NCBI GenBank assembly: GCA_042850255.1
Contig: AP031373.1
Coordinates: 630,001-662,000, forward strand
DNA: 32,000 bases
Direction: 5' to 3'
Source of the DNA: Nanobdellota archaeon
GTDB taxonomy: Archaea; Nanobdellota; Nanobdellia; Nanobdellales; Nanobdellaceae
Of the stretch, positions 8,638 through 13,596 are shown piece after piece (the first letter of the stretch is position 1; the number at the start of each line of letters is the position of its first letter). Under the pieces are notes generated by a model that saw only the letters and a program-made list of their open reading frames with translations, was not told where the DNA came from and did not search any database. Made by a program: the position numbers and the translations under genes.

Positions 8638-9948
8638 TTAGTCTATCCTAATTCCTACTAGCTTCCTGATATTTTCTATACTATATTCTAATGCCTCTAA
8701 GAAATATATAAGTAGATATTTAAAATATTTGAATTCTAATATACTTATAGATGAAGGAATAATTACATTATTATGCACAACTTTACTCGTATTTTCTAAT
8801 ACTACCCCTAATTTTTTTATATTTATATTTTGATTTTCTTTTTTAGCATAATTATAACTAACCTGCCATATAGGAATATTATTTTCTTTCTGAAATTTAA
8901 TAAATTTATACCATAGATATATATCTTCTGAATCTATCATATTATAAACTTTTTCTATCTTTTCTATTTGTTCATTGTTGCAGTAATTATCTAAAGGGTT
9001 TTCACAATTATCTTTATTTATACATATTTTCTTAAAATTTTTTGAATAAATTGATGAGATCATATACGAATAAATTAAACATAACTGTTGATCATCATTT
9101 ATTTTGTTGTCTGCAATAAAATCTAATCTAAGCAAATCTTCAGATATATTTCTTAATAATATATAAGAAGATCTTATGTTTCCTGATAAAATAGAATTTT
9201 TCAGTTCTACTGCAGTAGCTTCCATTTGTCTTATTATATCAAAAAATATTGTTGTATCTACTCTTTCTTCTTCTTTTATATAGAATACATTCCTCATTAT
9301 ACACTTTAAATTGCTTAGGATATTTATTATGCTATCTATAATATTTTCAATATTTTTATACTCTCCTAAATAATTCAATGATTTAATAAAATCTATATTT
9401 CTATTTTTATCTTCGTATAATTCTCCAATATTATAATAAAGAATCTTCCAATTTAAATTTAAAAATCCATATAATTTTGATATAGAAGAGCTTTTATCTT
9501 CTTGTAAGTCTTTCTCTAATAATTCTTTTGGCCAATTCTCTAGAAAATCCAAGAAAACTTTCCAATTAACTTTTAAATATAACATATATTTTTCATCAGA
9601 TTTTTTAGTAGAACCATGACTTGGTTTAGGTTCTAATATATATTTAAACATTTCTTTTCCTTTCCATGTTATTATTGGAATATCTATATCTTTTTCCATT
9701 TGTTTTAATTTTTCTTTATATTCATTCCATAGCTTTTCTACATATTTTTTAATTTCTTCAGGATTATCTTTTAATTTTTGTAAATTTTTCGAATAAGATA
9801 GCAAACAAAATGCGAATAAATATATTGGCATTGGAATATCTGTTTTGGGTTCTGTTATTGTTTTTGACAATTTAATGAATTTTATAGGATTATCTCTATT
9901 TCTTTTTATATAAAAAGGATATTGTGGTAAAATATCTTTATAGTTCAT
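8638..9948 (-). CDS. Hypothetical 436-aa soluble protein with no recognisable motif
   Basis: This is a long ORF without competing ORFs. It has no TM segments and no GT, nuclease or NTPase signature that I can place. Confidence 0.7.
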   Translation of the reverse strand: MNYKDILPQYPFYIKRNRDNPIKFIKLSKTITEPKTDIPMPIYLFAFCLLSYSKNLQKLKDNPEEIKKYVEKLWNEYKEKLKQMEKDIDIPIITWKGKEMFKYILEPKPSHGSTKKSDEKYMLYLKVNWKVFLDFLENWPKELLEKDLQEDKSSSISKLYGFLNLNWKILYYNIGELYEDKNRNIDFIKSLNYLGEYKNIENIIDSIINILSNLKCIMRNVFYIKEEERVDTTIFFDIIRQMEATAVELKNSILSGNIRSSYILLRNISEDLLRLDFIADNKINDDQQLCLIYSYMISSIYSKNFKKICINKDNCENPLDNYCNNEQIEKIEKVYNMIDSEDIYLWYKFIKFQKENNIPIWQVSYNYAKKENQNINIKKLGVVLENTSKVVHNNVIIPSSISILEFKYFKYLLIYFLEALEYSIENIRKLVGIRID

Positions 9949-9991
9949 TGGATAAAATTATATTATTTCTTTTTAAATGATATATAATATA

Positions 9992-10798
9992 TTAATTTTC
10001 AATCTTTGAATTGTTTTCATGATTTTTTATTGAATTAATAAATGCAGATATTACTCCTATAATTAGTTCCCAATATGCAATGACTCCTAATGCATTTGCA
10101 AAATTATTATATCCTAAATATAATGATATAGCACCAATAATTAATGATGTTATTGCAAATATAATAAATATCCTTTCATCCCACTTTAATATTGTAATTA
10201 AAACAATTGATATAATTACTAATATTAATTGATATAAATTTGATAAATAAAATAATGAAATTGAGATAATTGATGAAATTATTATCCAATAATATTTTAT
10301 TGGTGATTTTCTATATTCTCTATCAATAATTAATCTTGCAATTACTACTATAAAATATGGTAATAAATAAAATAATAATGATTTGAAGAAAGTAAAATTA
10401 AATATAATAATTAATGAATATAGAGTAAAAAATATCGGGAGGATATAATATAATTCTATTTGGGATAATATTATGAAAAATAAGGATAAATTAAATAATA
10501 AAATGTTTGGGTATAATAATAATGGGAAAAATATAAATAGAGGATCAATTTTCTTTGGATAGAAATAAAATATAATCATTGAAATTATTGAAAAAATATA
10601 AATTATGTAAAATGATGGGGAAAATATATAAATTAAATAGAAAAATAATAAAATTATTGGATAAAATAAAACTAATATTTCTTTTATTGGTCTATTAAAT
10701 ATATTTTTTATGTTTACATTATTTTCTTTTATATATTTATATTCAACATATGATAAACCTAGTAAAAATATTAACCAGGTAATTATTAATAGTTCCAT
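9992..10798 (-). CDS. Polytopic membrane protein (about 7-9 TM segments)
   Basis: Hydrophobic segments run throughout, and no competing ORF occurs on the other strand. Confidence 0.7.
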   Translation of the reverse strand: MELLIITWLIFLLGLSYVEYKYIKENNVNIKNIFNRPIKEILVLFYPIILLFFYLIYIFSPSFYIIYIFSIISMIIFYFYPKKIDPLFIFFPLLLYPNILLFNLSLFFIILSQIELYYILPIFFTLYSLIIIFNFTFFKSLLFYLLPYFIVVIARLIIDREYRKSPIKYYWIIISSIISISLFYLSNLYQLILVIISIVLITILKWDERIFIIFAITSLIIGAISLYLGYNNFANALGVIAYWELIIGVISAFINSIKNHENNSKIEN

Positions 10799-10829
10799 AC
10801 TTAACTATAAAGGAATTAATTTTATATTT

Positions 10830-12248: not shown

Positions 12249-12573
12249 TCTTTTTAATAAAATCTAACCTGGTAACATCAATATCATATATTGTTCTTAT
12301 TATTAATTTCTCAAATTTATCAGAATTGATTATAAGTTTCCTATATAATTCTTTTAATTCTTTTTCATTTATATCTGGTTTTATTATTGATTTATTTAAG
12401 ATTATTGTAGGAATAATAATATTTAGCAAGAAACTATTAATATTGTATTTTACAGACTCTATTACATTAATATTCTTTAATATATTATCTAAGAAAATTT
12501 CTAATCCAGGAAATTTTTCTTTATATTTTAACAATTCTATTAAAGTTAATGTATAAATAATTTTATTTGGCAT
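12223..12573 (-). CDS. Small hypothetical protein (about 116 aa from the ATG at 12573; the track ORF extends to a TTG at 12612)
   Basis: The ORF is co-directional with the ATPase block. I recognise no motif. Confidence 0.5.
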   Translation of the reverse strand: MPNKIIYTLTLIELLKYKEKFPGLEIFLDNILKNINVIESVKYNINSFLLNIIIPTIILNKSIIKPDINEKELKELYRKLIINSDKFEKLIIRTIYDIDVTRLDFIKKNGTEKNNN

Positions 12574-12611
12574 AATAAATATATCTTTTATGTTTATAAA
12601 AAACTTTGACA

Positions 12612-12794
12612 ATTATATTATATGTCAAACTTTATAGAAAAGGTACATATAGAAAATTTTAAATCAATAGATAGTATTGACTTAAATTGTAAAAGAATTA
12701 ATATTTTTATCGGTCCTCCAGGTTCTGGTAAATCAAATATATTGGAAGCAATTGGATTAATATCAAAATATACATTAGATAAATTTCCTGAATC
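12612..12794. repeat. 183-bp near-identical repeat, copy B (partner 1655..1837)
   Basis: See copy A. Confidence 0.9.
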
Positions 12795-13596
12795 TATCGG
12801 GGTTTATGATTATAATAAATTGGCTAGTATGTTCTATAGAAACAATATATATAAAAGTTTGGTAATAGGAATAAATGGAGAAAAATTAGAAGTAAATTAT
12901 AATGGAGATGAAACTGTTAGCGATTTAAAATCTAAAATCGAAAATAAGATTAAAAATAATAAATTATTATCCGAATTATATGAAAAGATAAAGTTCTATA
13001 GATTTAAAATTGAAAAAATACTATTTGGTAATTCTATTTTAACACCTTTTTTATATCCTCCTTATGGAGAAAATCTTATAGACATAGTAAAAATTAACAA
13101 AGATATATTAAATGAGATAACAAATGAATTTTTAGATGAATATGGTCTATTGGTTGCTAATGTAAGAGGAAGTAGAGAATTATTTTTAGTATATAAGGAG
13201 GATATAAAAAATCTAGAAAAGAATTTATCTATACCATTTATACCATTTTATCAGATATCAGACGGTATAATTAGATATATATTTAATTTATTGGCAATTG
13301 AAACAAATAGAGATTCAATAATATTATTAGAGGAACCTGAAAGTAATATATTTCCGTCCTATATTAAAAATATCGCTTTTAAAATATCTAGAAGTAATAA
13401 TCAATTCTTTATAACTACTCATAATGAATTACTTGTTGAAACACTATTAGAAGAAGTTAATATAGACGATATTTCAATATTTTGGGTTGATTTTAAAGAA
13501 AAGACTATAGTAAAAGAAATATCTGGAGAAAAATTAAAAGAGTTAGTTAATGAATCTATGTTAAATAATATATTTTTTGCTGCAGAAAAAATATAG
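12622..13596 (+). CDS. ABC/SMC-type (AAA_21-like) ATPase with intact motifs
   Basis: GPPGSGKSNILEA is the Walker A, SDG is signature-like, IILLEEPESNIFP is the Walker B and FFITTHN is the H-loop. Confidence 0.8.
   Translation: MSNFIEKVHIENFKSIDSIDLNCKRINIFIGPPGSGKSNILEAIGLISKYTLDKFPESIGVYDYNKLASMFYRNNIYKSLVIGINGEKLEVNYNGDETVSDLKSKIENKIKNNKLLSELYEKIKFYRFKIEKILFGNSILTPFLYPPYGENLIDIVKINKDILNEITNEFLDEYGLLVANVRGSRELFLVYKEDIKNLEKNLSIPFIPFYQISDGIIRYIFNLLAIETNRDSIILLEEPESNIFPSYIKNIAFKISRSNNQFFITTHNELLVETLLEEVNIDDISIFWVDFKEKTIVKEISGEKLKELVNESMLNNIFFAAEKI

Follow-up and report, generated by a model that had tools for sequence, protein, structure and literature searches.

Within a 32,000-nucleotide (nt) stretch of DNA (the window) from the 773-kb genome of the Nanobdellota archaeon YN1, we analyzed a block of six open reading frames (ORFs) at positions 8638-13596. 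An earlier note, made from the sequence, had proposed this block as one ATPase-centred defence system with a membrane protein and a 436-amino-acid (aa) protein as effectors. YN1 is an ectosymbiont of Sulfurisphaera ohwakuensis (PMC11420986). The explanation that we favor, with a probability of about 0.6, is that the ATPases of the block are orphaned remnants of ATPase-TOPRIM modules, lying beside unrelated lineage-specific genes in a glycan cluster. The proposal of a single system did not survive comparison with other genomes, as synteny failed: a membrane protein was the partner in 0 of 63 ATPase relatives, and homologs of the 436-aa protein had neither ATPase nor transmembrane (TM) neighbours.

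The six ORFs and their strands were recovered as given in the earlier note. Five are on the minus strand, in the order of transcription: a 129-aa ORF read from a TTG (12223..12612; 116 aa from the ATG at 12573), an 81-aa ORF (12003..12248), a 364-aa ATPase (YN1_7240; 10830..11924), a 268-aa membrane protein (9992..10798) and a soluble 436-aa protein (YN1_7220; 8638..9948). The sixth, a 324-aa ATPase (12622..13596), is on the plus strand. The 26-nt overlap of the two small ORFs (12223-12248) was confirmed, as were the gaps of 78, 31, 43 and 48 nt that follow.

Family and catalytic motifs of the 364-aa ATPase

The 364-aa protein is an ABC/SMC-type ATPase by Pfam and PADLOC profiles, and is the ATPase subunit of a PDC-M38/AbiL-type pair. 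Its Pfam matches were to AAA_15 (4.8e-16), AAA_21 (2.7e-13) and also DUF2813; both it and the 324-aa ATPase matched AAA_15, AAA_21 and SMC_N over the Pfam thresholds. In PADLOC it matched PDC-M38A (5.3e-33), with residues 1-359 aligned to profile positions 1-366 of 367, and AbiLi over the full length (4.9e-26). The nearest solved relatives of its family were PtuA, a class-2 OLD nuclease, Rad50, AriA, the retron-Eco8 OLD nuclease and GajA. The earlier placement of both ATPases among defence-type ABC/SMC proteins related to OLD, GajA, PtuA and AriA was upheld by the PADLOC and PDB profiles.

The motifs GKNNTGKSS, ICIEEPENHLHP and FISTNS, previously read in the 364-aa ATPase, are present. In an alignment with 12 homologs, Walker A, Walker B and the C-terminal DLR motif were intact. 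The earlier remark that the usual His is missing from FISTNS was correct: 12 of 12 homologs retain His at that place, and YN1 alone has Asn (N306) as its H-loop residue. The second Gly of the signature-like GDGxK was replaced by Ser in YN1 (S250), where GDG reads SDS. With the H-loop and the signature changed, the 364-aa ATPase does not have the complete ABC catalytic motif set. YN1 deviated at 7 of 27 near-invariant columns, as compared to 1 each in the nearest homologs (P0003, P0004 and P0006), and all seven substituted residues are encoded by AT-rich codons.

The H-loop His is required for hydrolysis in ABC ATPases, as illustrated by HlyB H662A. Because this residue was lost, we infer a loss of ATPase activity in the 364-aa protein, in which ATP is probably bound and turned over inefficiently.

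Absence of a TOPRIM-type partner

The family alignment was scanned against 185,579 species-representative genomes, which gave 80 loci. The four closest homologs (43, 37, 36 and 33% identity) each had, directly downstream and overlapping by 4 nt, a gene for a soluble protein of 161-232 aa, and 3 of the 4 partners matched PDC-M38B or OLD-like TOPRIM. Short-type relatives (~300-425 aa) were counted only when downstream sequence was available, and in 24 of 24 a soluble partner of 118-246 aa was encoded close by, at a spacing of -8 to +8 nt with one exception. The families matched by these partners were PDC-M38B, HEC-01B/02B, mad4, DUF3226, DUF4276, OLD-like_TOPRIM and RloB. A tightly linked downstream ORF was found in 63 of the 80 relatives, and none of these 63 ORFs had at least three hydrophobic segments. 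Where related systems have been studied, the nuclease effector is a TOPRIM-type protein or domain.

In YN1, no adjacent co-oriented TOPRIM-type partner (PDC-M38B, AbiLii or DUF4435-like) is present; the next gene encodes an ORFan with nine TM segments and no PADLOC or Pfam match. No ORF of the block gave a Pfam or PADLOC match to a nuclease, HNH included. A diverged or relic TOPRIM partner was looked for throughout the window by tblastn, with 3 and then 24 partner sequences, and by hidden Markov model search of the six-frame translation, and nothing credible was obtained. The best match from the partner searches (E = 0.006 before multiple-testing correction) fell inside the 436-aa ORF, and alignment of the 436-aa family with the TOPRIM partners by hhalign gave a probability of 0.6%, i.e. 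the two are unrelated. The earlier observation that the usual nuclease partner is missing held up in both the 24-partner tblastn and the six-frame profile search, and no nuclease candidate was found in the 32-kb window. Co-occurrence in other genomes, which had been suggested as a check on the block, gave a negative answer: gene order was not conserved and the membrane protein had no relatives. PDC-M38 was not mentioned in the literature searched.

The membrane protein, the 436-aa protein and the small ORFs

A codon log-odds model was trained on the Pfam-supported genes of the window, and validated genes were scored by leave-one-out. The 436-, 268-, 81- and 129-aa ORFs scored as coding in their own frame only, at 0.15-0.30 per codon; the range of the validated genes was 0.18-0.51, and antisense ORFs scored below zero. 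These codon statistics indicate that the ORFs of the block are real genes. The 268-aa ORF (0.15) scored near the flippase gene (0.18), and the 81-aa ORF scored 0.30. The 436-, 81- and 129-aa ORFs had zero matches in Pfam, NCBIfam, PADLOC and PHROG, and no homologs of the two small ORFs were detected there. The 436-aa, 268-aa and two small proteins are products of genuine lineage-specific genes, and ORFans of this kind are typical of DPANN genomes.

Hydropathy confirmed that the 268-aa protein is polytopic, with ~9 hydrophobic segments. Pfam, NCBIfam, PADLOC and PHROG gave no match to it, and scans of metagenomes and viruses turned up no relative. Its single-sequence AlphaFold2 (AF2) model reached a predicted template modelling score (pTM) of 0.33, which makes a fold search with it meaningless; Foldseek returned no match, and the best PDB match had E = 3.4.

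The 436-aa protein is soluble, with no TM segment, signal-like feature or known motif, in agreement with the first description. A word-indexed search of 5.8 billion clusters returned only the self match, and an exhaustive HMMER search over 1.84 billion representatives found two remote homologs, P0122 (E = 1e-4; locus L008, 149-1291) and P0123 (E = 8e-4; locus L009, 2296-3552). A profile re-search with the family gave no further members. On the contigs of P0122 and P0123 there was neither an ATPase nor a membrane-protein neighbour, and the three family members shared no neighbours; P0123 is preceded by a 126-aa soluble protein and followed by XPB/Bax1. Blocks conserved across the family are KVNW, Y..LRN..E and S..(I/V)H…P..SLLE(F/L)K(Y/F)FK.

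The AF2 model of the 436-aa protein (predicted local distance difference test score 55, pTM 0.61) consists mainly of helices, with a small sheet at the N-terminus. A structure search on 8638..9948 had been proposed as a check on the earlier note, and the predicted model gave no significant Foldseek match in PDB or BFVD (best PDB E 0.13). Neither the 268-aa nor the 436-aa protein matched a glycan-assembly family in Pfam or NCBIfam at E < 0.1, and both structure models are weak (pTM 0.33 and 0.61).

The invariant polar residues of this archaeal family are R266, N267, E270, S388, H392, E405 and K407. A HEPN-like reading of the C-terminal 'LRN..E … S..VH' blocks was considered and rejected, as there was no Pfam HEPN match at E < 0.1 and the canonical Rx4-6H spacing was absent.

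Gene spacing and promoters

The earlier note had listed short gaps (31-78 bp) between the genes of the block. The median same-strand gap in the window is 31 nt and the coding fraction is ~91%, and gaps of 31-78 nt therefore carry no operon information. The 436-aa gene is 48 nt from the neighbouring glycosyltransferase family 2 (GT2) gene (7828-8589), versus 43 nt from the membrane-protein gene.

Upstream of 35 genes of the window, a T-rich stretch was found at -29 to -27, with an A at -24 in 27 of the 35. This signal fits the TATA boxes expected of leaderless mRNAs, and a putative TATA-like element precedes each gene of the block. The 17-mer ATTTAAAAAGAAATAAT occupies the core-promoter position before both the 436-aa gene (9962..9978, minus strand) and the GT2 gene (8603..8619, minus strand). 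These are the only two exact copies in the window, and they have the same position relative to the two genes. The pair points to an independent promoter of the 436-aa gene, which it would share with the glycosyltransferase unit and not with the ATPase. Taken with the TATA-like elements, it suggests that the genes of the block may be transcribed independently. Apart from this, ATTTAAAAAGAAATAAT may be a shared regulatory element.

Between the divergent 129/116-aa ORF and the 324-aa ATPase gene, whose starts are 9-48 nt apart, the sole TATA-like element is the near-palindromic TTTATAAAAA (12593..12602). It is located ~20-29 nt from the ATGs at 12622 (plus strand) and 12573 (minus strand), and is a candidate bidirectional leaderless core promoter. 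The TTG start at 12612 is 9 nt from the divergent ATG and would lie on top of TTTATAAAAA, which makes the ATG at 12573 (116 aa) the more plausible start. A scan for sigma-70 promoters and terminators gave 74 sites versus 73 expected and is uninformative in an AT-rich archaeon.

The second ATPase and its paralog

The 324-aa ATPase had been described as a paralog of the 364-aa ATPase with fully intact motifs. The motifs are intact; the two proteins, however, are only 28% identical and belong to different subfamilies (HEC-01A versus PDC-M38A/AbiLi). Profile searches gave HEC-01A as its best PADLOC match (6.6e-22). The gene is monocistronic and partnerless, with a convergent ORF beginning 6 nt past its stop.

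A closer paralog, 338 aa in length and also partnerless, was found 11 kb away (1665..2681, plus strand). It is 47% identical to the 324-aa ATPase, and the first 59 aa are identical. Its catalytic Glu is replaced by Thr (ILLDTKV) and its H-loop His by Asp (ETDN), and judged by these lesions it is catalytically dead. The promoter and first 59 codons of the two genes form a 204-nt repeat (12594..12797, plus strand, and 1637-1840) of 94% identity. A repeat of this identity in paralogs that are otherwise 47% identical suggests recent gene conversion.

Among the loci fetched, the nearest relatives of the 324-aa ATPase were from Bacteroidota, with a coupled ~160-aa partner in 5 of the 5 that had downstream sequence. 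These partners, downstream of the ATPase in loci L019 (5670-6158), L023, L030, L031 and L060, contain the motifs 'LPEC(F/Y)xDT' and '(V/I)DxDK', which look TOPRIM-like. They had no PADLOC match, and the family is missing from that defence catalogue. A metagenome scan for wider relatives of the 324-aa ATPase led only to a distant Gabija locus (L090), and the sole plasmid match was a truncated fragment.

The 338-aa paralog lies in a repeat-rich island of toxin-antitoxin and ATPase genes (1-6500) with three MNT nucleotidyltransferase genes, two of which have a HEPN partner. The third HEPN gene, around 5944-6020 beside an intact MNT gene, is internally deleted, and what remains of it is ~35 nt from the 5' end and ~65 nt from the 3' end. 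The dead paralog and this deleted HEPN gene indicate that decay of two-gene modules is a local pattern. Two AAA_14/DUF4143 genes with 97%-identical 300-nt 3' ends are found in the same island.

Neighbouring genes and composition

The glycosyltransferase flanks of the block were borne out by Pfam, with the GT2 gene (7828..8589, minus strand) on the left and a glycosyltransferase family 4 (GT4) gene (15308..16363, minus strand) on the right. The region between 13596 and 15308 additionally contains a 119-aa ORF, a UPF0175-like frame and a GNAT gene. The glycan cluster (~25 kb) extends to about 31.7 kb and includes GT2, GT4, flippase and FkbM methyltransferase genes. The G+C content of the window is ~20%, ranging from 17 to 23% all along it, with no shift at the block. 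There were no PHROG matches and no IMG/VR relatives, and on these results, together with the even composition, a viral or mobile origin was rejected.

Several further features were observed nearby. The stop-free frame at 14084-14392 (plus strand) matches UPF0175, an antitoxin-like helix-turn-helix family (Pfam, 1e-9), and has a coding score of 0.42. It has no ATG, GTG or TTG start, and an ATG at 14088 is in a different frame; the frame is probably a frameshifted or unannotated small gene, directly upstream of the GNAT gene (14446-15042). Within the glycan cluster, a 195-nt copy of the flippase gene 5' end and its upstream region (17562-17756 versus 18843-19037, 99% identical) sits in the 307-nt gap between an FkbM methyltransferase gene and a GT2 gene, as a partial gene duplicate. 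Also in the cluster is a 779-aa protein (21875-24214, minus strand) with ~12 hydrophobic segments and no Pfam match, whose ORF has a 68-nt overlap with the next. This protein could be a strongly diverged oligosaccharyltransferase-like enzyme or some other membrane enzyme of the glycan pathway.

Evaluation of the favored and alternative explanations

The favored explanation can be stated as a course of events in a compact symbiont genome, in which a surface-glycan cluster would have become interspersed with decaying two-gene modules. The ancestral pair would have consisted of an ABC ATPase and a small TOPRIM-type protein in translational coupling. YN1 would have lost the partner gene, and afterwards the H-loop His and the signature Gly of the 364-aa ATPase. 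The protein that is left would bind ATP, hydrolyze it poorly and have nothing to activate; it would be a remnant or, at most, an ATP-binding protein put to a new use. The 324-aa ATPase would be catalytically intact and partnerless, its promoter and first 59 codons having been exchanged with a dead paralog. The membrane, 436-aa and two small genes would use their own TATA-like elements, that of the 436-aa gene being a core promoter common to it and the adjoining glycosyltransferase gene, and their neighbourhood with the ATPase would be incidental.

Several points weigh against this explanation. The H-to-N and G-to-S changes could stem in part from extreme AT mutational bias instead of relaxed selection. 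The 364-aa ORF has kept its full length and its Walker A, Walker B and DLR motifs although the 773-kb genome is under strong deletion pressure, which speaks for partial retention of function. To lack a partner is unusual, as none of the 24 short-type relatives does; a gene for a polytopic membrane protein occupies exactly the slot of the partner, and five genes of the block share an orientation. A partner in trans is also possible, given that the DNA inspected is 32 kb of the genome.

Some of these same points are what an effector replacement would predict. In that case an infection-sensing, ATP-binding, hydrolysis-impaired ATPase of the PDC-M38/AbiL type would gate the nine-TM protein (by membrane disruption), the 436-aa protein, or both, as a new abortive-infection module with the TOPRIM protein functionally replaced. 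The membrane gene begins 31 nt past the ATPase stop in the partner's slot, the genes of the block are co-oriented and all coding, the ATPase ORF has been maintained intact except for two motif lesions, and the partnerless state is otherwise unseen in short-type relatives. We nevertheless hold this replacement to be improbable, as it is a single occurrence: a membrane partner is found in none of the 63 relatives, the membrane protein has no detectable relatives in the metagenome and viral scans, and both 436-aa homologs lack an ATPase or membrane neighbour. The 4-nt overlap by which members of the family are typically translationally coupled is absent, the gaps are of the size normal for this genome, the 436-aa gene appears to have its own promoter in common with GT2, and the lost H-loop His speaks against a hydrolysis-driven switch. 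A comparably small chance is given to the possibility that the partnerless ATPases are functional, either with a nuclease in trans (TOPRIM or other) or with the 324-aa protein in a heteromer with the degenerate 364- and 338-aa subunits, like asymmetric ABC dimers. Three related ATPases do occur within 12 kb, of which one is intact and the other two have lesions limited to hydrolysis residues; the promoter and N-terminus common to the 324-/338-aa pair suggest co-regulation, and the ORFs have been kept in a reduced genome. Set against this, all relatives examined encode the partner in cis and in close coupling, identity between the 364- and 324-aa proteins is only 28%, and no nuclease candidate is present in the 32-kb window.

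The earlier note had itself offered an alternative, in which the ATPases and small ORFs would be the only accessory genes and the membrane and 436-aa proteins would belong to the glycan pathway. Its first part fits the data better than a single system does. In its full form, the 268- and 436-aa proteins would be surface-glycan or envelope components (a polymerase, lipid-carrier enzyme, or chain-length or assembly factor) co-regulated with the GT2-GT4 genes, which we regard as doubtful, though less so than the two preceding possibilities. The location of the genes and the shared promoter suggest such a role: both genes are inside the ~25-kb cluster with GT2, GT4, flippase and FkbM methyltransferase genes, only 48 nt separate the 436-aa gene from GT2 downstream of it, the two having an identical 17-mer core promoter, and other unannotated membrane proteins, e.g. 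the 779-aa protein, occur in the cluster. Against it, there is no sequence or fold similarity to glycan-assembly families (both structure models being too weak for exclusion), the 436-aa homologs are in non-glycan contexts, e.g. beside XPB/Bax1, and neither a TM segment nor a signal-like feature is present in the 436-aa protein. A role of these two proteins in the glycan pathway or the envelope would be compatible with the ATPases being orphaned remnants, the reading that we favor.

Significance

If the ATPases are orphaned remnants, the locus would be a clean example of the decay of a two-gene ATPase-nuclease module in a reduced DPANN symbiont genome, in which the partner is deleted, catalytic residues erode to AT-rich codons and paralogs are gene-converted. 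It would also be a caution that co-orientation and short gaps are a poor basis for calling operons or "systems" in 91%-coding genomes. What is new here is a small undescribed protein family of three members, of the 436-aa type; the 364-aa ATPase is a degenerate representative of the already known PDC-M38/AbiL kind. The defence inventory published for YN1 lists type I and type IV restriction-modification systems and a solo Cas4, and nothing else (PMC11420986). These putative ATPase remnants are left out of that catalogued repertoire. Of the readings considered, only a replacement of the nuclease by a membrane-protein effector, the probability of which is low, would attract broader attention in research on defence systems.

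Comparison with known systems

The block shares with OLD and Gabija GajA the ABC ATPase fold family, with PDB profile matches to 6p74 (class-2 OLD, 5e-11) and GajA (1e-6). Those proteins, however, carry the TOPRIM nuclease as a C-terminal fusion to the ATPase (500-750 aa in total), whereas the YN1 proteins (324-364 aa) end after the ATPase domain. Unlike the genuine Gabija locus L090, the YN1 block has neither an OLD-like_TOPRIM match nor a GajB UvrD-like helicase neighbour.

PARIS, Septu and retron I-A follow the logic of an ATPase sensor with a separate nuclease effector, and AriA and PtuA rank among the closest solved relatives (7e-12 to 1e-9), with PADLOC matches. The AriA profile matches (1.5e-18 and 7e-15) were weaker than those to PDC-M38A and HEC-01A, and there is no AriB (DUF4435 TOPRIM) gene. 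Septu and retron I-A differ in that no PtuB (HNH) gene is present. Scores also fell far short of the NCBIfam equivalog cut-offs; for PtuA, 38.8 bits were reached against a cut-off of 500.

With respect to HEC-01, neither YN1 copy has an adjacent partner, and PADLOC does not contain the partner found in the nearest relatives; the likeness is that the 324-aa ATPase best matches HEC-01A and that its nearest relatives have a coupled small partner. YN1 departs from PDC-M38/AbiL in having no B subunit or TOPRIM gene or relic in cis, in the loss of the H-loop His and signature Gly, and in the nine-TM ORFan downstream. It resembles this type in that the 364-aa protein matches the A subunit from end to end, and its closest homologs sit in canonical A+B pairs.

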